Positions 52,563-64,000 of a DNA stretch of 64,000 nt are shown one piece after another. The translations under genes and the position numbers were made by a program. Source of the stretch: a virus. The notes below the pieces were generated by a model. The model was not told where the DNA came from. It saw nothing but the letters and a program-made list of their open reading frames with translations, and made no database searches. The stretch's first letter is position 1. Each line of letters starts with the position of its first letter. Where the stretch lies: positions 18,530 through 82,529 of the IMG/VR virus record IMGVR_UViG_3300037524_002016, one strand, 5' to 3'.

Positions 52563-54413
52563 TTAGCCAAGGTAGGACCGCCGGGGTCGGTCCGCCAGCC
52601 CCATGGGCTCGTCATCGCGGGGGCTGGGTATCCGCACCGACGTGATGGGCGGCAGGATGAGGCCCGCGGTGGCCGAGACGGAGCCCTCCTCCAAGATCGA
52701 GAACCCGATGCGGAGGTAGTTGAGGGCATGGGCAAAGTGGGTGTCCCCGGTGTCGACCCAGGTGCCCTTGGCGGAAGCGTCTTCGCGGACCTTCTTGATG
52801 TTCTGCAGGTGCCGCTTCACCGTCGGCATCTCCGGGCACTCGCAGAAGCGAATCCGGCCGCTGTTCACGTCCTTGGAGAGGTCGTCAAAGGCCGCCGTCC
52901 GGTTAGCGTGAACCAGGCCTTTCTCGAGGTCGATCCGGTGCCCGATCAACTGCTTGCGCTCGGACCCTTCCCGCTCGTAATAGCAACCGAAGGCTGAGCC
53001 TTCCGGCAGGTTGTTGGTCACATGCTTGGCGGTGGTGAAGTCCGGGGCCGCGTCCACAACTGCCATTACAGAGTGGAAGTCTTGGGCTACGCCCAAGACT
53101 TCCATTCCTAGAATAGGGTCATGGAGGTCGCGGGTGTCGATCCGGGCAATGTAAATGACGTCGATGAAGGCCCCATTCCGGGTTCCGACCACGATCCAGG
53201 ACACCTTGCCCACGTCACACCCCACCACCGTGGGCCGGCCCGACCAATGGGCCCGGTCCTGCAGTCGCAGGACCGTGCTTCTGTCGACCACGTCGATGAG
53301 GAAGGACGATTCGGCGTCCTCATAAGTCTCCCCGACCTTGTGGTTCACCCACTGGTACTTGTACTTATAATCGCCAAGCTGTCTCAGCGTCCTGGCGGGG
53401 GTGTTAATCTTCGGCAGATCGAACGAACTGATCTTGAAGCCCTTGTGAGTCCTGGACGGGTACTCATGGACCCAGGCCCGTGCTTCCGGATCTGCCAGGT
53501 TCTGACGAGTGATGGGTTGGCCGCAGCCCGGGTGGGGGCATTTGAGCCAGGCATCGTTGACCCTGATCCTATTGTTGGTATGGCTGGGTCCGGCTTCGCC
53601 GGACCCAGCAAAATCAGAAATAGAGTCTGATTCAAGGTCGTGTTGCTCGAGATGATGACGTTCAAAGAACCTCAAGCTGTCATCGAACCCCGGCACCACC
53701 ACGTCCTCGAAGAACTCCGGGGTCACCCAGCGGCTGCAAGCATAATGTTTGACGGCGTAACGCCCCTTAGACGACCCGCTGTAGAACTTGCTGATTCCGA
53801 AGCCCTGCACCGTGGGCGTGGAGAACCGCACGGTGTGATGCATGCCCTCTTCCTGGTGGCCCAAGCGGGACTGGTACGTGGTCAGCACGTCCGGATCGGA
53901 GAAGTCCACCTCGTCATGAAACAAGGCCGTGGCCGGGATCGAGATCGGGTCCATGCCGGCGGAGGCACCAGTGATGTGTAGGAACGAAGATCCCAACTTC
54001 TTCAAGGTGTTGTTGTCCACGTTGGGGTCCAACAGGCCCTTGATCGTCGGGGACCCGGCAATAGCGGGATCGATACGGGTGGTGCAGAACTTGTTCGCAA
54101 ACGCCGACGTCTGCAGGGTGTAAATAATCTGCGTCGGCTGTTTCACAATCAGATAGGCGGCGGCCATCCGAATCGCTAATTCCGAGACCCCGGCCTGTGA
54201 AATCTTCATGACCGAGGCTTGCTCCTCGGCAATGGCGGCGGCAATGTCCACCTGGAATTCGTGGTCCTTGAACGACCAAGGCCGATGCGGATCCGCGGGA
54301 TGAGACGTGAAATCCTCAATCCAGCGGGGAATGAAAGACAGGTCGCGGCCTCCGGAGACACCGAGCCGGATGCGGAGGAGGGTTTGGTCGATGCGATCAG
54401 ATCGAGATGGCAC
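52563..54413 (-). CDS. terL: Terminase large subunit (lambda gpA-like)
   Basis: HEFQ, MKISQAGVSE, FHDEVD, FSTPT..GFGI, VGCDVG nuclease motif, DTHFAHA. Confidence 0.88.
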   Translation of the reverse strand: MPSRSDRIDQTLLRIRLGVSGGRDLSFIPRWIEDFTSHPADPHRPWSFKDHEFQVDIAAAIAEEQASVMKISQAGVSELAIRMAAAYLIVKQPTQIIYTLQTSAFANKFCTTRIDPAIAGSPTIKGLLDPNVDNNTLKKLGSSFLHITGASAGMDPISIPATALFHDEVDFSDPDVLTTYQSRLGHQEEGMHHTVRFSTPTVQGFGISKFYSGSSKGRYAVKHYACSRWVTPEFFEDVVVPGFDDSLRFFERHHLEQHDLESDSISDFAGSGEAGPSHTNNRIRVNDAWLKCPHPGCGQPITRQNLADPEARAWVHEYPSRTHKGFKISSFDLPKINTPARTLRQLGDYKYKYQWVNHKVGETYEDAESSFLIDVVDRSTVLRLQDRAHWSGRPTVVGCDVGKVSWIVVGTRNGAFIDVIYIARIDTRDLHDPILGMEVLGVAQDFHSVMAVVDAAPDFTTAKHVTNNLPEGSAFGCYYEREGSERKQLIGHRIDLEKGLVHANRTAAFDDLSKDVNSGRIRFCECPEMPTVKRHLQNIKKVREDASAKGTWVDTGDTHFAHALNYLRIGFSILEEGSVSATAGLILPPITSVRIPSPRDDEPMGLADRPRRSYLG

Positions 54414-54897
54414 GGAGGCGGCGCTCCAAGTCGGTGATGTACTGTTCTTGGGCCTCTTCGGGGAGGTTCTTTACAGTTTCTATGAAGGCCGCTTCTATGG
54501 CAGAGAGTTCAGACTCCTTGTCCAGCTTTTCCTGGGCCTTTAGGTAAAGACTCAAGAAGCTCGTGAAAGCCGTCACCATCTCCCGGGCCTCCCGCACTTC
54601 GAAGCCGTCCCTCAGCTTATTGGTCAGGGGATTGACCAGGTTCTGGCGGAGGGCCTGGACCAGGGCGTACTGGGCCTTCACCTCTTGGTGGAGGTCGAAG
54701 GGTGCCGAGAGGTCGCCGGCAATCTCAGCCAGGGCCCTGCGCTGTCCCGGGGTCAAGTAGTTGTCCAACTCGGCAATGGTTTTCAAAGCCGCGGCAATCT
54801 TTTCCCCGGGCGTCAGCGGGGCTTCACCTAGGGTGGCGAAGGGGACCGGTTCAGCGGGTTTGGGGTGACGGGTCAGCATGGGATGGGGTCTCTTCAC
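54397..54897 (-). CDS. Probable terminase small subunit
   Basis: Helical protein of about 160 aa overlapping the terL start. Confidence 0.6.
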   Translation of the reverse strand: MKRPHPMLTRHPKPAEPVPFATLGEAPLTPGEKIAAALKTIAELDNYLTPGQRRALAEIAGDLSAPFDLHQEVKAQYALVQALRQNLVNPLTNKLRDGFEVREAREMVTAFTSFLSLYLKAQEKLDKESELSAIEAAFIETVKNLPEEAQEQYITDLERRLRAISI

Positions 54898-54944
54898 TAA
54901 AAGGTTTCGATAGCGCGGTGGCCGGCCAACGGCCGGTCACCGCA

Positions 54945-55181
54945 TTAGCGAATCTTTTTCGTCGCAGTAGCCCGGCCCCAGATCGACAGCAGCGCGCCGA
55001 TGCCGGACAGTCCAGTCATCACGGACGGGACCAAATCGGTCACGGTGTCCACGGCACAGTTCTTCAGCGCTTCGCTGACAGTGAAGTCGGTGGTGGCTGC
55101 CACGAATGAACTGACCAGGGTGATGAGGGCCCCGATGATGGTCTTCGAGGTGTACCAGGGCTTGATGTCATGGGTGTCCAT
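54945..55181 (-). CDS. Small two-TM holin-like protein
   Basis: KPWYTSKTIIGALITLVS...GALLSIWGR..A.KKI. Confidence 0.6.
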   Translation of the reverse strand: MDTHDIKPWYTSKTIIGALITLVSSFVAATTDFTVSEALKNCAVDTVTDLVPSVMTGLSGIGALLSIWGRATATKKIR

Positions 55182-55248
55182 TTTTCTGCTCTCTGTTGGG
55201 TGGGGTTTAAGTCAGGCGTGACCTCCGCTTCGCGGAGGTCACGCTCGG

Positions 55249-55479
55249 TTAAATCTCTCCCGACACAGAGTCGGGAAAGCTCGGAAACGCTCGATCGTCC
55301 ACGTAAATGTCCAGGAAGTGGTTCTTCCAGAACCGCGTGTAGAGCCAATAGCGGCGCCAGCGTCCGCCTTTCTGGTCCGGAAAGGTCTTCAGCTTGAAAA
55401 GCTGGAGACCTTTCCAATCTGAAGTACGGGGAGCATGGGCGGGATCGATATTCAGTCCCAAGGTCACGGTGATTTTCAT
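55249..55479 (-). CDS. Hypothetical protein
   Basis: AGGAA RBS before MKITVTLG. Confidence 0.45.
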   Translation of the reverse strand: MKITVTLGLNIDPAHAPRTSDWKGLQLFKLKTFPDQKGGRWRRYWLYTRFWKNHFLDIYVDDRAFPSFPDSVSGEI

Positions 55480-55576
55480 GGTGTTCCTGCGGGTCAAGGT
55501 CCAGGTTCGGGATCGGGCCCAGGGTGGTACGGCCAGGGGCCAGAAACTGTGTCTGTGTGGCTTTGGCGGGGAAAGC

Positions 55577-55930
55577 TCAGTACTCCTCGCTCGCATGGGG
55601 GCGCTCCAACAGTCGAGGTTTCTTTAAAGGGTCGGGATCGGGGGCCGGTGCAGGTCCACTGATAGAGTCAGAACCAGGGTTTGGGCCCGGCCCTGGCCCT
55701 CTGACAGAGTCAGAGTCGGAGGCAGAACCAGGGCTTGGCCCTTCTGCGGTAATCCTGGCGAACTCTTTCTGCGCGGCAGCGTAGGCCCGGTCCCGGGCTG
55801 CGCCCCAGTTGGGGGCCATGGGATCGCCGATGGTGTAGCCCAGGGCCTGGGTGCCGTTCGTTGCCGTGATCAGGCAGACGGTCACGTAGGTGCCGGGGAT
55901 AACATGGTAGAGGGTGGACACTGTACGCAT
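55577..55930 (-). CDS. Possible N4 gp49/Sf6 gp66-like protein with Pro/Gly/Ser tail
   Basis: GTYVTVCLITATNG..ALG...AARDRAY resembles the TVC.L.L.NG..V.G core of that family. Confidence 0.45.
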   Translation of the reverse strand: MRTVSTLYHVIPGTYVTVCLITATNGTQALGYTIGDPMAPNWGAARDRAYAAAQKEFARITAEGPSPGSASDSDSVRGPGPGPNPGSDSISGPAPAPDPDPLKKPRLLERPHASEEY

Positions 55931-56202
55931 GAGAGGATTCTAGCATGCGTATGGGGAGAGTCACACTGGTTGAGTCGGGGGCTGTGAAATGTACTGAAAA
56001 GTTGTCGAGATGAGGGAGGGGACTGTGGCGTTTTCAGAGAGAACCCCAAAATAAAAAGTGGTACCGGGTCTTTCCTTTAGAAAACAATCACTTAGACATC
56101 ACAACACTGTCACTACATGGTTTGTGACGAAATAGCAGGGTTGCGACATAAAAAATTAAATAGATACTGTAACCATGCTCCACAACAAAGAAGGACACCA
56201 CC

Positions 56203-56400
56203 ATGAAGACCAAGACCAACAACACGGCCACTAGGCAGTTAGTGGTCGGCACGTACAGGGGCATCACCCTGTACATCGGTCCCAAGGGCGGCGAGCCCAT
56301 GGGAGTTGAAACGATGGAATGGCAAAGTTTTGTTGAGGACTGCCCTGTGATGGGCGCCCTGTTGAAGAAAATGGCCGACGGGACACCTCACTATGTTTAA
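56203..56400 (+). CDS. Small early protein (paralog of 58131-58301)
   Basis: AAGGA RBS; LYIGP...WQSFVEDCPVMGALL..MADG..HY. Confidence 0.75.
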   Translation: MKTKTNNTATRQLVVGTYRGITLYIGPKGGEPMGVETMEWQSFVEDCPVMGALLKKMADGTPHYV

Positions 56401-56590
56401 AGAAGTTGCTCTGATGCTGATTCTCTTGACGGGTTGCACTACACACCCCGTCAAAGAGACCGCCATCGGCCTCGAAACGGCCTCAGCGGCCGAATTGGCC
56501 GCCAGTGTCGGCACAGCGCCGACACCAAGGATGGTGGAAATGCCGGTAGTCCCGGCAAAACGGCAAGAGATGCCGATACCGGCACGGTAA
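56393..56590 (+). CDS. Small lipoprotein
   Basis: MFKEVALMLILLTG-C lipobox. Confidence 0.6.
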   Translation: MFKEVALMLILLTGCTTHPVKETAIGLETASAAELAASVGTAPTPRMVEMPVVPAKRQEMPIPAR

Positions 56591-56671
56591 GAGATCAAAT
56601 TCCGCTGTTGACAGCGGAATTTGAAGGTTAGATCGCCCTCAGCGATCTGCAAAAGCGGCCGGCGGGCCGCA

Positions 56672-56699
56672 CCCTGGCAACAGGGACGCTCTTTAACAA
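56672..56699 (+). promoter_or_regulatory. boxB-boxA antitermination (nut/rrn-like) site
   Basis: CCCTG-GCAA-CAGGG hairpin with GNRA loop, then one base and CGCTCTTTAACAA (boxA consensus). Confidence 0.75.
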
Positions 56700-57005
56700 C
56701 GGAACAGGGCTCTTTCCCACTTGGGAAGGGGCATCAAGCGGACAATCCCGCGCGGATTGACGTTAAACCCGCCATCGGGTGAGTTTCGACTGCTATTTCA
56801 GGGTCGAAACAAGTTGCGATGGATCTGTAACACCAGTGTTACAGTCTACTTAACCGTAGGAACGGACAATTTAGCGTCAGTTTCGTGGTGCAATGTCAGG
56901 GCTTTAGGTAATCAACCCGCACATCCGCTCGAACCTGTTTCAACTTGCAACGAAGGGACCGCAAACCAGACGGTTTGCGGCAAAGACTCACATGAGGATA
57001 CGAAA

Positions 57006-57605
57006 ATGACCAATCAGACCAACGAAAAATACGCCGACCTTATTTCCCGTATCACCAATTACGGCAAGGAAAGCAAAAGCCACGCAACGATCGGTCACGG
57101 CTTGGCCGTGGAAGCCCTCCGAGCCAGCGTGGACGGGCACTGCGCCCCATTGAATGCGTTCATGGCAGTGCTCCGGGGCGGCCAGAGGAGCGACTTCGTC
57201 CAGTGGGTGAAAACCCACGGGAAACCCAGCTTCGACGGCAAAACCGGGAAGTTCTTCTTGCCGAAAGGCAGTAAGAAAGAATGGCGTCTTGATGAAGCGG
57301 AGAAAACCCCCTTCTGGATTCCTCCGACCAAGGAACCTAAAGCCCCGGCCCAGAAAACCGAGGCGGGCGCCAGACTGAAGAAGTACCTGGAAGGAATCAG
57401 CGCCGAATGCGTCGGCGACCCGGCCGCGAAAGCGGCAGTCGAGATGGCCCTTGCGGCTTTGGCTGGCAAGTCCGCTTACCAGCAAAAAGACCAGAGAATC
57501 AAAGACCTTGAGGCTGAGAATTCAGCCCTCAAAGCACAATTGGCGGCCCTGGAGAAGGGCACCATCCTGACAAAGAACGCCCCGGCCTTGGAAAAGGCCG
57601 CCTAA
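57006..57605 (+). CDS. Early phage protein of unknown function
   Basis: GAGGA RBS; H..A...L.....G....L......R...VQW..THG...F...K...AEKTPFW pattern resembles, from memory, early genes of other lytic phages; C-terminal coiled coil. Confidence 0.75.
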   Translation: MTNQTNEKYADLISRITNYGKESKSHATIGHGLAVEALRASVDGHCAPLNAFMAVLRGGQRSDFVQWVKTHGKPSFDGKTGKFFLPKGSKKEWRLDEAEKTPFWIPPTKEPKAPAQKTEAGARLKKYLEGISAECVGDPAAKAAVEMALAALAGKSAYQQKDQRIKDLEAENSALKAQLAALEKGTILTKNAPALEKAA

Positions 57606-57628
57606 CCCTCCCCCGTCCCATACCAACA

Positions 57629-57656
57629 CCCTGCCGGAGCAATCCGGCGGGGTTTT
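57629..57656 (+). terminator. Terminator-like hairpin
   Basis: CCCTGCCGGA-GCAA-TCCGGCGGGG plus TTTT. Confidence 0.65.
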
Positions 57657-57961
57657 GGTGCTTCCCTTTTCCCTTCGCCAGCAAGCCGTCCGGTTTGCGG
57701 TCCCTTCGTTGCACTGTCAGCTCCAAACCCTGAGATGCTGCACTAACCCCTTCCCATGGCCATGGATGGCCCCAATCCGTTTCCTCGATTAAACCAGAGA
57801 CAAGCGGGAAGGGCGGATGAGCATTGAGACAGGTTAACTCTCACTGACAGACCTCACGGGTTCGGATTAGGGCCAAAACCGCGCGCTGATCGACGTTCAG
57901 CACCCTAATCCGGCCCTTTATTAAGTCCATGTTTCGTGGGCTTAACAAAGGGAGTTCCAAA

Positions 57962-58186
57962 ATGCAACTTGCACTCCTAGCGCTACTAGGTACCAGCTCA
58001 TTAGCGCTGATCATCCTGAGCGCCATCCAAGCCTGGCGCAATCGAGAGGGCCAGGAATGGCTGACGTTCCTGGCCTTTATTTTGCTCATCGCAGCCATTC
58101 TGTGGCCCATGTTCACTTGGGAGATGCCCAATGGACACCCTCATCATCGCCTTTTGCGGGAACCTCCCGCTCTACATCGGCCCTAG
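57962..58186 (+). CDS. Small two-TM membrane protein
   Basis: GGGAG RBS; two hydrophobic helices. Confidence 0.6.
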   Translation: MQLALLALLGTSSLALIILSAIQAWRNREGQEWLTFLAFILLIAAILWPMFTWEMPNGHPHHRLLREPPALHRP

Positions 58187-58301
58187 TGCCGACTGTCCGG
58201 CCCATCTGGACACGATCCCCTGGCAGACCTTCTGCCAGGATTGCCCCGTCATGTCGGCCCTCCTGCGGGGCCTGGCGGACGGGGTGGCCCACTACCTCTG
58301 A
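58131..58301 (+). CDS. Small early protein (paralog of 56203-56400), not in the ORF track
   Basis: Own translation: MDTLIIAFCGNLPLYIGPSADCPAHLDTIPWQTFCQDCPVMSALLRGLADGVAHYL*; GGGAG RBS. Confidence 0.75.
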   Translation: MDTLIIAFCGNLPLYIGPSADCPAHLDTIPWQTFCQDCPVMSALLRGLADGVAHYL

Positions 58302-58328
58302 CAAGCTTGTCAGGGGTGTTCTGAACCG

Positions 58329-58359
58329 GGCTCCGAGATAGAATCGGGGCCTTTCTTTT
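58329..58359 (+). terminator. Terminator-like hairpin directly before the next RBS
   Basis: GGCTCCGA-N7-TCGGGGCC plus TTTCTTTT. Confidence 0.6.
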
Positions 58360-58371
58360 GCTCACAGGAGA

Positions 58372-58995
58372 ATGACCATGTTCTATGAAATCAATCAAGT
58401 GAATGCCGCCGCCCGCGAAGCGGGTTACTCCCTGATGACCGCACAAGCCGCCCTCCGCGTGCTCCGGCACGTGGAAACCGGAGGGTTCCTCGGTGCCAAC
58501 GCAGACCAGTACGCCATGGGCGTGCTGGCCCAAGATGGAACGATCCTGAAATCAGGATACGAGTGCTTCGATGAAGGCGTCCGGAAGGATGCCTACGCTT
58601 TGGCGGCCGAAGTCTGGCCCGACATCTGGGCCGTGGCGGAAGAAAACTTCCGCCAAGCGGCGGAAGAAGAGGGCGGGGAAATCGAAAACGGGGAAATCCT
58701 GTCCCCGGAACAAATGCTGGTCGCCTGCGGGCGGCTGGCCTCTTACGGCGGGGGGTATATGTACCCCGGTGCCGAGGTCGCGATATTCAATCCTGATGGC
58801 ACCGCGGTGCCGTTTCCGGTGCCGAGGCATTGCGTAAAGGCGTACGACCGCAAGTCGTACGGCGAAGAACAGGCCGAGGCCCTGGAAAGAGCCCCGATCG
58901 GGGCTGTGCTCAGGATCGTTGAAAAGTTCGACCGGAACACCGAAACCGACTGGACGAAGGTCCAGGATGGCTGGCAACTGACCTACCAGAAGTAG
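58372..58995 (+). CDS. Hypothetical acidic protein
   Basis: AGGAG RBS; phage-like codon use. Confidence 0.75.
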   Translation: MTMFYEINQVNAAAREAGYSLMTAQAALRVLRHVETGGFLGANADQYAMGVLAQDGTILKSGYECFDEGVRKDAYALAAEVWPDIWAVAEENFRQAAEEEGGEIENGEILSPEQMLVACGRLASYGGGYMYPGAEVAIFNPDGTAVPFPVPRHCVKAYDRKSYGEEQAEALERAPIGAVLRIVEKFDRNTETDWTKVQDGWQLTYQK

Positions 58996-59046
58996 GTCAG
59001 ACCCTAGTAACGCCCCACGACCAGGGCGTTACTTTCTCTTCACTAG

Positions 59047-59072
59047 AGGCCCCGCTCCGGGGCCTTTTTCTT
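59047..59072 (+). terminator. Rho-independent terminator
   Basis: AGGCCCCG-CTC-CGGGGCCT plus TTTTCTT. Confidence 0.7.
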
Positions 59073-59095
59073 GTCCACTCACACGGTGAAACCAA

Positions 59096-59265
59096 TGACC
59101 ACTCTCACAGAAGCCATTCTCCGCTTGATCGAAGAACTCAACTCCGATGACGAAGACGTCTTCGGACCAGAATTCGAGCCCGAGTCCAATCCGTACCGGG
59201 CCCAGGCCCTGGAAATCATCCGATTCGAGGGCCTGGACCACTACGCCGACCTGACGCCGGTGTAG
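59096..59265 (+). CDS. Small acidic hypothetical protein
   Basis: MTTLTEAILRLIEELNSDDEDVF...; start approximate. Confidence 0.55.
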
Positions 59266-59269
59266 TGCC

Positions 59270-59503
59270 ATGGACCTCACCAGAACCCCCAACGAAGTCC
59301 TGGACGCCGTTCTGGCGGCGGCCAGGCAGTCCCATTGTCAGCCCTCTGGCCTCTCGCGAGAGGCCAGAGAAATCCTTAAGGGGTTTCTTGCGCTGTCCGC
59401 GGAGGTGCGGGAGACCCTCATTCTCGACGTTTTCCGGGAGAAGCAAGCCCGGAAAGCCCGGGCCCGGTTATTCCACGAGTCTCTAAGTCCGGTTTGGCGG
59501 TAA
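59270..59503 (+). CDS. Hypothetical protein
   Basis: Follows the previous ORF by 4 nt. Confidence 0.5.
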   Translation: MDLTRTPNEVLDAVLAAARQSHCQPSGLSREAREILKGFLALSAEVRETLILDVFREKQARKARARLFHESLSPVWR

Positions 59504-59598
59504 AACCGCCAGCCAAAACGAAAAACGGCCGGGTTGACCGGCCGTTCCTTTATGCTTCGCTGCGGCGAAGCATAACCTTTTGTCAAGGAGAATGCAAT

Positions 59599-59946
59599 AT
59601 GGCTGCGATCCTGCAGATTGATAGCGGAGAACACTTGGCCCAGCGTCTCACCACGCTTCGCGAGGCGAAGCGTGCGATCGAGAAGGAACTAGACCAGGTC
59701 GAGGCCCAGATTCTGGCCCTCTACCCGGCCCTTGCGGTGCCCAATTCAGGTCCGCAAGGGCCATTCAAGGCCGAATTTCGGCGGCGATTGGTGCTCGACC
59801 CGGCCAAAGCGTGGCCGTTTGTGATCAAGCGGCCGGCCTTGAGACCGTTATTCGACCTCAAACTCCCAATCGGGGATTGGGAGAGGCTCGGGGAGCCCAA
59901 CATCGGCCGCGTTGAGACGGGTTCTCCCGGCCTCAAGGTTCGCTAG
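59599..59946 (+). CDS. Hypothetical protein with N-terminal coiled coil
   Basis: AAGGAG RBS; LREAKRAIEKELDQVEAQI. Confidence 0.65.
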   Translation: MAAILQIDSGEHLAQRLTTLREAKRAIEKELDQVEAQILALYPALAVPNSGPQGPFKAEFRRRLVLDPAKAWPFVIKRPALRPLFDLKLPIGDWERLGEPNIGRVETGSPGLKVR

Positions 59947-60474
59947 CGCCTCCGCAAGGGTTCGCGGGCGGCCCTTGTAATAGTCCCTGCGGGTGGGGTC
60001 TAGGAAGGTTTCGGGGTCCTCCCGGAACCTTCTGACCCAGCTGTTCACGGTGGCAACGCGGATATTCATGTCCCGACTGACCTGGTTTTGAGTGTGCCCC
60101 TCCTCGAAAATCCTTCGGATCACCTCTTTTTTCGCGATCACCCGCGACTGGCCCCACAGTCGCGGGGCCGGTTCGCTCAGGGTTCGCCTGGGCGGGCGGA
60201 CCCCTTCGCGGCGTCCCGGTCGCGGGAGGGCGGCCAAAGCATCGTATCCGCCCTCCTTATAGGTCGTCCACCACCGGTGGATGCTCGCGGAGGCGACACC
60301 TACCAGCTCTTTGATCTGCTCGTAGGTCCAGTGGGCGTTCAATAAGTCTACAGTTACGAACCTTCTAATGTAGAAGACGTCGTCCCGGTACTTTTCTGGC
60401 CAATTTTTTGAATTTTGTGCGATTATCATTCCACAATTGGTTAGAAACTGTTTTGGCGACAATCTTGGTGTCAT
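59848..60474 (-). CDS. Tandem helix-turn-helix DNA-binding protein
   Basis: WTYEQIKELVGVASASIHRWW..YKEGGYDALAALPRPGR and GHTQNQVSRDMNIRVATVNSWVRRFRE. Confidence 0.75.
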   Translation of the reverse strand: MTPRLSPKQFLTNCGMIIAQNSKNWPEKYRDDVFYIRRFVTVDLLNAHWTYEQIKELVGVASASIHRWWTTYKEGGYDALAALPRPGRREGVRPPRRTLSEPAPRLWGQSRVIAKKEVIRRIFEEGHTQNQVSRDMNIRVATVNSWVRRFREDPETFLDPTRRDYYKGRPRTLAEALANLEAGRTRLNAADVGLPEPLPIPDWEFEVE

Positions 60475-60938
60475 GACTGTTTCTCCGGAGTAAATTAGAG
60501 GCCCTTTTTAGCCTTGCGGGGGCCTTGCCTCTTTGGTTGTGACTTGACCGTCTTACAGTGAGTGACGAAACGTCCATTCTTCAAAAATAGATAGAACTCT
60601 CATCCAACTTCACTAGAGTGTATGACTGCGGCTGTGGAAAAAAGTTCTGAAGGCACTGAAAATAGTGAGATGTAGAATAAAACGTAATAAATTATACAAG
60701 TAATTATCAAAGTACAAATGTATAGGTATAGAGCCTTAGATCGAAAACACAAAGTTTTTTTGCAACCAAAAAACATTATGAAAGTGCCATTTTAGGGGGC
60801 CATATACCCACATTTTGGAAATCGAATTACCGTGAAAATAAAAGTGAAGAATTCTGAGTGCCGCTAAATTCAAGGCTTCCAGAAGTTTTAGTAATAGCAT
60901 TACGCATCCAGATTCTTATAATTTGTTAGTTACCCCAC

Positions 60939-61297: not shown

Positions 61298-61363
61298 ATT
61301 CTGTGGATAACTCAAAAATAGTTGCTAGCGAAAGTGTATCTTTTGCTTAGTTATCCACAGAAT
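61298..61363. promoter_or_regulatory. Inverted pair of consensus DnaA boxes in an AT-rich region
   Basis: TGTGGATAA (61302-61310) and TTATCCACA (61351-61359) inside a perfect 15-bp inverted repeat. Confidence 0.65.
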
Positions 61364-63098: not shown

Positions 63099-63398
63099 AT
63101 GAGACACACAACCATGAACCATAACCCTGCCCCCCACAAGGGCCATGACCCCCACAAGGGCCATGACCCCTATGAGAATCACCGGTTCGACCGGGTGATC
63201 CACACCTTGGTCAGCCGGGCCAAGGACAAAAATCTTCCCGGAGAGATCATCGACCGCACCGCGAAGGCCGCAAAGAAGGCCGCGGCTCGGGGCTACCCCA
63301 CCACCCGCCTGATGGACGAGTTCGTCCGGCCCCTGAAGAACCGGCATCGGCCGTACAAGCGGCCGGCCCCGAACAAGTGTCTGGTCGACCCATCATGA
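63099..63398 (+). CDS. Basic hypothetical protein
   Basis: PHKGHD x2 repeat; ATGA overlap with the next ORF. Confidence 0.55.
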   Translation: MRHTTMNHNPAPHKGHDPHKGHDPYENHRFDRVIHTLVSRAKDKNLPGEIIDRTAKAAKKAAARGYPTTRLMDEFVRPLKNRHRPYKRPAPNKCLVDPS

Positions 63399-63547
63399 TC
63401 ACCGCCAAGCGCGTGGTCCGGAAGGCGACCCGGAAGGCGACCCGGAAGGTGGTCCGGAAGGCGACCGCGTTTGCTACCTGGGATGCGACCCAATCTGCCG
63501 TTCAAACTGCAGTCCTGAACACCCAACACGGAAGGCAACCGCCATGA
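63395..63547 (+). CDS. 50-aa basic peptide with RKAT/RKVV tetrapeptide repeats, not in the ORF track
   Basis: Own translation: MITAKRVVRKATRKATRKVVRKATAFATWDATQSAVQTAVLNTQHGRQPP*; ATGA overlaps at both ends. Confidence 0.55.
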   Translation: MITAKRVVRKATRKATRKVVRKATAFATWDATQSAVQTAVLNTQHGRQPP

Positions 63548-64000
63548 CTACTGTAAAAGATGCGACCTGGGATGCGACCTGGGATGCGACCTGGGATGCG
63601 ACCCGGGATGCGACCTGGGATGCGACCCGGGCTGCGACCTGGGCTGCGACCTGGGATGCGACCCGGGATGCGACCCGGGCTGCGACCCGGGATGCGACCT
63701 GGGATGCGACCCGGGCTGCGACCCGGGATGCGACCTGGGATGCGACCCGGGATGCGACCCGGGATGCGACCCGGGCTGCGACCTGGGCTGCGACCTGGGA
63801 TGCGACCTGGGCTGCGACCTGGGATGCGACCGGGGCTGCGACCCGGGATGCGACCCGGGATGCGACCCGGGCTGCGACCCGGGATGCGACCTGGGATGCG
63901 ACCCGGGATGCGACCTGGGATGCGACCTGGGATGCGACCCGGGATGCGACCTGGGATGCGACCCGGGCTGCGACCTGGGCTGCGACCTGGGATGCGACCG
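63544..64000 (+). CDS. [DA]AT[WR] tetrapeptide-repeat protein (3' partial)
   Basis: MTTVK then DATW/DATR/AATW/AATR repeats, open to the window end; GGAAGG upstream. Confidence 0.7.
   Translation, partial: MTTVKDATWDATWDATWDATRDATWDATRAATWAATWDATRDATRAATRDATWDATRAATRDATWDATRDATRDATRAATWAATWDATWAATWDATGAATRDATRDATRAATRDATWDATRDATWDATWDATRDATWDATRAATWAATWDAT
63559..64000 (+). repeat. 12-bp tandem repeat array G[A/C]TGCGACC[T/C]GG, about 37 units
   Basis: Read directly; only positions 2 and 10 of the unit vary (one GGG exception near 63832). Confidence 0.97.

Follow-up and report, generated by a model that had tools for sequence, protein, structure and literature searches.

Layout of the locus and the leader-trailer helix

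The stretch of viral DNA analysed here, a window of 64,000 nucleotides, corresponds to bases 18530-82529 of the 82,529-bp IMG/VR virus record IMGVR_UViG_3300037524_002016 (rated 98% complete), and positions below are those of the window. The subject is a plus-strand locus at 56595-57915, built around an open reading frame (ORF) of 199 amino acids at 57006-57605, designated ORF199, whose 5' leader and 3' trailer are complementary to each other. Along the plus strand the locus carries a boxB-like hairpin, a boxA, the leader strand of the helix, ORF199, a terminator-like hairpin (T1), the trailer strand of the helix and a second hairpin (T2).

The leader strand of the helix lies at 56946-56985 and includes its own local hairpin (56959-56980); the trailer strand lies at 57673-57713. 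The arms 56946-56978 and 57681-57713 are 94% complementary over 33 nt, in a register in which 56946+i pairs with 57713-i, and reading by eye extended the helix to 56985/57673 with one bulge and one mismatch, giving approximately 40 bp. Of the two mismatches in the 33-nt arms, one is a G-U pair on the plus strand and the other a G-U pair on the minus strand. A perfect core of 22 nt occurred twice in the window, once per strand, against 0.00 expected (100 shuffles). Across the 82,529-bp genome no perfect inverted repeat with its copies within 5 kb of each other is longer; the runner-up measures 15 nt. The duplex energy was -72.2 kcal/mol, versus -16.2 and -13.2 kcal/mol for the arms' own local hairpins, and the helix was included in the minimum-free-energy fold of 56595-57915. 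Closure of ORF199 into a loop by this helix is strongly favoured energetically. The helix ends approximately 10 nt before the Shine-Dalgarno sequence of ORF199. Complementary ORF flanks and a main helix of this extent had been put forward in an earlier reading of the window (the original prediction), and both were borne out, the core far beyond chance.

boxA (GCTCTTTAACAA, 56688-56699, plus strand) is a putative NusB-NusE(S10) binding site. GCTCTTTAACA at 56688-56698 is a perfect match to GYTCTTTAANA, the consensus derived by Baniulyte et al. for gamma-proteobacterial boxA (PMC5725501; this and the other papers cited below were drawn on in part). The match was the sole one in the window (0.09 expected; at least one match in 8 of 100 shuffles) and in the whole genome, both strands included. 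A boxB-like hairpin with a 5-bp stem and a GCAA loop was predicted at 56672-56685, 2 nt upstream of boxA, and a second leader hairpin at 56655-56670; when 56650-56705 was folded, both hairpins formed and boxA was left unpaired (z -3.55, 0 of 200 shuffles as good). rrn operons carry the elements in the order 5'-boxB-boxA soon after the promoter, and in them boxA is both required and enough for the antitermination complex to assemble (PMC10250234). As predicted from sequence, the hairpin-then-boxA order here is that of rrn operons. boxA would lie approximately 50 nt from the transcript start, the start being taken from contig starts only (see below).

T1, an intrinsic-terminator-like hairpin at 57621-57660 (plus strand), has an 11-bp GC-rich stem and a GCAA loop followed by TTTTGG (-30.4 kcal/mol, z -6.2, 0 of 200 shuffles as good). 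It is placed between ORF199 and the 3' arm, within the loop closed by the long helix, and was missed by a consensus terminator scan requiring 5 T in 8. T2 (57863-57912, plus strand) has a perfect stem of 10 bp, contains an internal stem-loop and precedes CCCTTTATT (-27.7 kcal/mol, z -3.6). The stems CTGTCAG/CTGACAG, CCCTTCCC/GGGAAGGG and CGGATTAGGG/CCCTAATCCG were found in the trailer; these three and a terminator hairpin ahead of the 3' arm had all been claimed, and all are present.

Further leader-trailer pairings, implying pseudoknots or alternative folds, had also been proposed. Leader segments A (56919-56930) and B (56932-56943) are complementary to trailer segments A' (57811-57822) and B' (57824-57835), all on the plus strand, and the order of the two 12-nt pairings is crossing, as a pseudoknot would have it; the mismatches in both are G-U on the plus strand only. 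Individually the pairings were at chance level: 104 of 500 shuffles equalled the best ungapped leader-trailer helix score and 14 of 500 the second best, so that the claim of further pairings and of a pseudoknot held for their presence and order but not for their significance. Jointly there was a mild excess: six leader-trailer helices scored at least 22, where shuffles averaged 2.06, and 2 of 1000 shuffles produced an adjacent pair of the A:A'/B:B' type (a test chosen post hoc). In folds of the separate pieces, B was paired within the leader and A' within the trailer. The remaining proposed pairing, 56887-56905 with 57725-57744, is present as an interrupted 5+6 bp match; it did not exceed chance and fell below the cut of the helix list. 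When the whole leader was run against the whole trailer in RNAduplex, 231 of 300 shuffles were equally good; this test is uninformative because the method forces one long duplex. The leader fold had an energy of -124.8 kcal/mol, with z -5.3 on the plus strand versus -3.5 on the minus strand.

RNA from the locus in public sequencing runs

Part of the locus was contained in 22 public runs, 18 of which were metatranscriptomes, from wetland or sediment; the whole locus was contained in three DNA runs, possibly those from which the record derives. RNA runs contained at most 0.42 of the sampled words, and leader and trailer together make up 0.40 of the stretch (leader 0.24, trailer 0.16). Logan contigs of three RNA runs and one DNA run were placed on 54000-60500. 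In all three metatranscriptomes the deepest contig covered the leader: 56638-56930 in run X14 (depth 24.4), 56640-56957 in X4 (22) and 56665-56955 in X5 (29.9). Together these mark out a highly structured leader RNA of approximately 320 nt at 56638-56957, assigned to the plus strand (the contigs give no strand). The next-deepest contigs in two of the three runs covered the trailer (57704-57915 in X4, depth 9.95; 57704-57854 in X5, depth 12.3), corresponding to a plus-strand trailer RNA of approximately 212 nt at 57704-57915 that starts inside the helix and ends just after T2, the X4 contig ending 3 nt past this hairpin. Two ORF-internal contigs had depths of 2.4-2.5, and several neighbouring bins were without RNA. 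No RNA cover was found in bins 55953-56603, and the contigs suggest a transcript start near 56638. DNA run X13 contained only short unlike pieces and no relative of the locus.

The leader ends 56955 and 56957 and both trailer starts (57704) fall within the helix, with the limit that contigs cannot prove RNA ends. Since 57704 is the pairing partner of 56955, a leader ending at 56957 overhangs by 2 nt at its 3' end, the geometry left by RNase III. The 22-nt repeat is shorter than the 31-letter index words and was for this reason argued not to have broken the contigs, on the assumption that the assembly used the word length of the index, 31. The coinciding contig ends were rated weak evidence. 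The contigs suggest that the helix is cleaved and that the two structured flanks outlast the message.

Proposed processing of the ORF199 transcript

On balance, and with modest confidence, the locus is read as a boxA-antiterminated early transcript in which RNase III cuts the leader-trailer helix, excising the mRNA and leaving stable flank RNAs. In the same joint reading the transcription unit is built like an rRNA operon, with a protein gene replacing 16S rRNA. Transcription would start near 56638-56640. Approximately 50 nt into the RNA, the hairpin and boxA would recruit host NusB-NusE and the other Nus factors, and the polymerase would become resistant to termination. The modified polymerase would then pass T1 behind ORF199 and transcribe the trailer strand, which would displace the local hairpin of the leader arm and form the helix of approximately 40 bp, looping out the ORF. 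Host RNase III may cut each strand roughly one turn of the helix in from its outer end, after approximately 56957 and before 57704, as the contig ends weakly indicate. Three products are expected: an ORF199 mRNA with its ends in a duplex of approximately 28 bp, the leader (320 nt) and the trailer (212 nt). Cleavage would release the ORF199 mRNA from the boxA-Nus-polymerase loop. Leader and trailer, compact and with protected ends, would accumulate well above the mRNA and may stay joined by a 10-bp stub; this stub was retained when the two were cofolded, with a gain of -12.2 kcal/mol over the separate folds.

The original prediction had listed an rRNA-operon-like processing stem among its options. 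This option is favoured by the boxA behind a hairpin, the contig ends within the helix and the presence of T1, which the polymerase has to pass before the helix can form, and its RNase III cuts are weakly indicated. The wider proposal of an undescribed ORF-enclosing noncoding RNA or ribonucleoprotein was not established: the parts are of known kinds (Nus/boxA antitermination, leader-trailer processing helices and 5'-3' pairing of untranslated regions), and nothing links the protein to the RNA. In the portions of the literature covered, no phage protein gene was found described within an rrn-type leader-trailer helix behind an rrn-type boxA.

The ORF199 protein

ORF199 encodes a folded N-terminal domain followed by a C-terminal coiled coil; in the AF2 model (mean pLDDT 80.4) residues 1-110 were confident. 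Out of 1.84 billion representatives, eight were related at E<=1e-3, with identities of 82% and 45% for the best two. In BFVD, 15 proteins matched structurally at E<=1e-3; all are uncharacterized and of phage origin, with T7-like phages as the source of many. A weak match to phrog_1448 was also obtained (E 1.5e-4). ORF199 thus is a real protein family. No Pfam family scored above the cut-off, and no match to a transposase, recombinase or reverse transcriptase family was found, in agreement with the earlier statement that the ORF has no reverse transcriptase or transposase motif. Foldseek against the PDB gave nothing at E<=0.001, and a cluster look-up gave no named members. The best match in VIA wide (Z 5.9) was on the coiled-coil part only, and in Atlas only viral clusters without names came up, together with a lead to DUF3102 that stayed below threshold (0.76). 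By tblastn, a weak and non-significant match (E 0.2) was obtained to the first annotated gene of Caulobacter phage Cd1, a gene that is preceded by five annotated early promoters and a 23-bp stem.

The frame of ORF199 is open for a further 95 codons upstream of its ATG (56721-57005, with a TTG at 56721). This extension is probably not translated, because the 82% relative also has 199 amino acids and the same alignment start.

Related phages and conservation

Eight IMG/VR loci were found with terminases 30-41% identical to that of this phage. Consensus boxA was present in two of the five terminase-related records searched whole (30-31% identity), G003 and G004, and a reversed-pattern control gave 0. 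In both, boxA is on the strand opposite to the terminase gene and approximately 1.9 kb upstream of it, the same placement as here. The boxA of G003 lies behind a canonical TTGACT-N17-TAATAT promoter and a hairpin, and its leader of approximately 600-700 nt is followed by a 22-bp hairpin right before the first ORF (L016 1841-2568; L017 for G004). The two leaders are 93% identical and were therefore counted as one lineage. Their RNAalifold consensus had 228 pairs, of which 6 were kept by double changes, 6 by one-sided changes and 0 were broken; two of the six double changes sit in the 22-bp hairpin. This phage group would seem to have structured boxA leaders in common.

The ORF199 profile matched none of five related phage records. 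Neither ORF199 nor a 3-sequence alignment recovered the DNA of a relative from viral, metagenome and genome collections, and the distant family members P0006 and P0004 gave none in viral contigs. The locus had no blastn match among 50,697 phage records, the 22-nt helix core had 0 matches in IMG/VR and the 22-mer spanning boxB and boxA had 0 in JGI metagenomes. The 20-nt core gave one hit in 185,579 GTDB genomes, in a Hyphomicrobiales metagenome-assembled genome with unlike flanks; we regard it as chance, about one such hit being expected by our estimate. No look-alike stretch was found in the other genomes scanned.

Genome context

Both ends of the virus record lie in one and the same 12-bp tandem repeat (63395-64000, and the bases with which the record opens), which is probably where the assembly broke; the break probably falls within a repeat-bearing gene of a circular or permuted genome. 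Virion and packaging genes are on the minus strand, ending with a GpA-type large terminase at 52563-54413 (Pfam E 2.8e-16). The ORF199 locus is on the strand opposite to the terminase gene, 2-3.5 kb upstream of it, and heads a block of plus-strand genes. In the proposed reading, ORF199 is the first gene of the phage's rightward early transcription unit.

A palindrome at 56595-56624, just upstream of the inferred transcript start, has perfect 14+14 arms (100% complementary) around a 2-nt centre, with TTGACA (56608-56613) at its centre. It may serve as the operator of a repressor or belong to the early promoter. The only zero-mismatch copies of its half-site in the window are its own two; ten further matches with 2-3 mismatches occur elsewhere in the window, giving 12 with the palindrome's own two versus approximately 5 expected.

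Two small ORFs of 65 and 56 amino acids, at 56203-56400 and 58131-58301, flank the locus on both sides and are paralogues (45% identity over 53 amino acids, E 2e-20); each adjoins a small lipoprotein-like or membrane ORF. The second-deepest RNA signal within the 6.5 kb covered (54000-60500) was at 59695-60328, where contigs of depth 2.5-10.8 were found in two metatranscriptomes over the region of a helix-turn-helix gene on the minus strand (59848-60474; HTH_28/HTH_29, E about 1e-9). At 61298-61363, in a low-GC stretch (GC 0.47), lies the perfect inverted repeat ATTCTGTGGATAACT, which is 15 nt long with a 36-nt spacer and ranks second in length in the genome.

Discussion

Several observations weigh against reading the locus as a boxA-antiterminated, RNase III-processed unit. 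The RNA evidence comes from contigs of only three RNA runs; Logan contigs are strandless, their ends are only hints and their depth is a poor measure of expression. One of the leader contigs ends at 56930 and one starts at 56665. The low depth over the ORF fits cleavage followed by decay as well as release for translation. A promoter scan called no canonical sigma-70 promoter (-10/-35) ahead of the start, and for this reason the promoter role of the palindrome and its TTGACA is only inferred. The boxA consensus is gamma-proteobacterial and may not fit the host of this phage, and a by-eye look found nothing GU-rich after boxA that could be called a boxC. Coding stretches on either side of the locus (56200-56590 and 57929-58300) fold at z -5.9 and -6.6, so the fold z-scores are not specific to the locus. 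The enclosing helix was read from this single genome. In G003 and G004 a local hairpin stands before the first ORF and no ORF-enclosing helix was found, and hhalign detected no homology between that ORF and ORF199 (probability 0.2).

The same data can be read with the flanks as the product: leader and trailer would stay paired after cleavage as an abundant two-piece noncoding RNA, the ORF being an excised message, and its possible jobs would be a stable boxA decoy binding NusB-S10 or a scaffold for a phage protein. The flank contigs are approximately 4-12 times deeper than the ORF contigs, no RNA run exceeds what leader and trailer would yield, the 10-bp stub persists on cofolding with its gain of -12.2 kcal/mol, leader-trailer complementarity is in mild excess (6 versus 2.06; 2 in 1000, post hoc) and boxA is single-stranded in the leader fold. 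Structured by-products of RNase III can, however, build up without a function, contig depth measures abundance poorly, the extra pairings are individually at chance level and have competing partners inside each piece, and no Rfam family was matched; we consider this account unlikely. A bolder form of it, in which the paired leader and trailer are an abundant phage RNA whose boxA titrates host NusB-S10 and starves rRNA antitermination while driving the early operon, is held to be equally doubtful; the crossing A:A'/B:B' pairings would then be the architecture of a bipartite RNA. Retroregulation of lambda by sib suggests another use of the helix, which would form only on transcripts that read through T1 and would then direct RNase III to destroy the ORF199 mRNA, so that ORF199 is expressed from terminated transcripts and shut off once antitermination begins. 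T1 does precede the 3' arm, leaving terminated transcripts without it, and the ORF contigs are the shallowest part of the locus. But boxA stands at the very start of the transcript, which makes read-through the default and not a late switch, the cut would leave the mRNA ends in a duplex of approximately 28 bp that should protect and not expose them, and low mRNA depth is expected for any translated message beside compact RNAs. A sib-like switch is accordingly given a low probability.

The repeat could finally act as DNA, as the ends of a mobile or recombined cassette that brought ORF199, as an inversion site or as paired protein-binding sites, with the RNA pairing incidental. A 22-bp perfect inverted repeat does flank a single gene, a palindrome is found within each arm, both arms are bordered on the outside by the dinucleotide CT (read by eye) and the locus sits between two paralogous micro-protein genes. 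Against this, ORF199 matches no transposase or recombinase family, and no second copy of the core was found in the genome or in IMG/VR, the single 20-mer hit in 185,579 genomes being a chance one. Inversion would break contigs at the core ends 56967/57692, not at 56955-57/57704, and would not make the flanks ten times deeper, and no joints were seen in the contigs. An origin at the DNA level appears highly improbable.

Several specific identities were also tried and rejected. An intron was discarded, there being no Rfam core, no flanking exons and no joint; covariance models of Rfam gave no match to a group I or II intron core, as had been stated. Rfam gave 0 matches at the gathering score in the 64-kb window, and at E<=10 in 56000-58500 it gave seven chance-level matches to unrelated small families, with no intron, GOLLD, ROOL or HEARO among them; with this check, which the original prediction had called for, the locus matches no described Rfam family. 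ARAGORN found no two-piece transfer-messenger RNA (tmRNA) and no tRNA or other tmRNA. An IS200/IS605-like element was dismissed for lack of a Y1 transposase match, and an insertion sequence or miniature inverted-repeat transposable element because, although inverted repeats are present, there is no transposase family match and no further copy. The contig ends do not fit an inversion switch. A lambda-type nut/N system was rejected since the hairpin precedes boxA and the ORF199 N terminus is not arginine-rich (other small early ORFs were not searched).

Of the known systems, the rrn leader resembles the locus in its hairpin and boxA, here predicted to lie early in the transcript, and its complementary flanks around a cargo, with the proposed cuts here likewise on both strands within the flank helix (PMC10250234). 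In rrn, 17 bp of the leader-trailer helix were reported critical (PMC10250234), and the helix here is longer. The locus differs from rrn in that the cargo is a 600-nt protein gene, the setting is a phage and a terminator-like hairpin stands in the loop; its flanks seem to endure and not to vanish, no Rfam family shows sequence similarity to it and no boxC was identified by eye.

Phage lambda has boxA followed by boxB, requires the phage N protein and has a local hairpin as its RNase III target. Its nutL site is approximately 200 bp upstream of N, and a Nus/RNA loop represses N translation, a repression modulated by RNase III; a boxA-polymerase loop also represses translation at suhB (PMC5725501). 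As at lambda pL-nutL-N, a Nus site with a boxA precedes the first early gene by a few hundred nt, the interval between this site and the ribosome-binding site holds structured RNA together with a target of RNase III (here a proposed one), and a cut would release the message from the Nus-RNA loop. In contrast to lambda, the hairpin precedes boxA here, no N-like protein was identified and the target is formed by the 5' and 3' flanks of the gene.

Pairing of the untranslated regions of icaR involves RNase III. 5'-3' pairing of this kind has been described for icaR in Staphylococcus aureus (PMC3868564) and hbs in Bacillus subtilis (PMC5737220), where, in the parts of these reports drawn on, it covers the ribosome-binding site or acts on cellular mRNA decay. 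The likeness is that both untranslated ends of one mRNA pair; the helix here is approximately 40 bp long, ends approximately 10 nt before the Shine-Dalgarno sequence and belongs to an antiterminated phage leader. T7-like phages carry RNase III sites between their early genes, as local hairpins. The locus shares with them and with Cd1 a long stem ahead of the first early gene (23 bp in Cd1), and ORF199 resembles in fold uncharacterized proteins of T7-like phages; their stems, however, are local hairpins, and the Cd1 protein match is non-significant. The mEpimmI group of Nus-dependent non-lambdoid coliphages has three nut sites and an N-like arginine-rich antiterminator (PMC11893012). These phages, like the present one, are non-lambda phages with boxA/boxB sites in early transcripts, and the part of that report drawn on describes no gene-enclosing helix.

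If the proposed processing is correct, an environmental phage outside the lambda group has adopted the complete scheme of an rRNA operon (boxB-boxA leader, leader-trailer helix, excision by RNase III) for a protein gene, and Nus/boxA control coupled with leader-trailer processing would extend beyond rRNA, lambda-type nut sites and a few cellular mRNAs. The locus would offer a simple system for asking how far-apart RNA ends come to pair with the help of an antitermination complex. Since the leader can be detected in 18 small metatranscriptomes, it could mark active infection, and should it endure as an RNA carrying boxA, a takeover of the host through titration of its Nus factors is conceivable.

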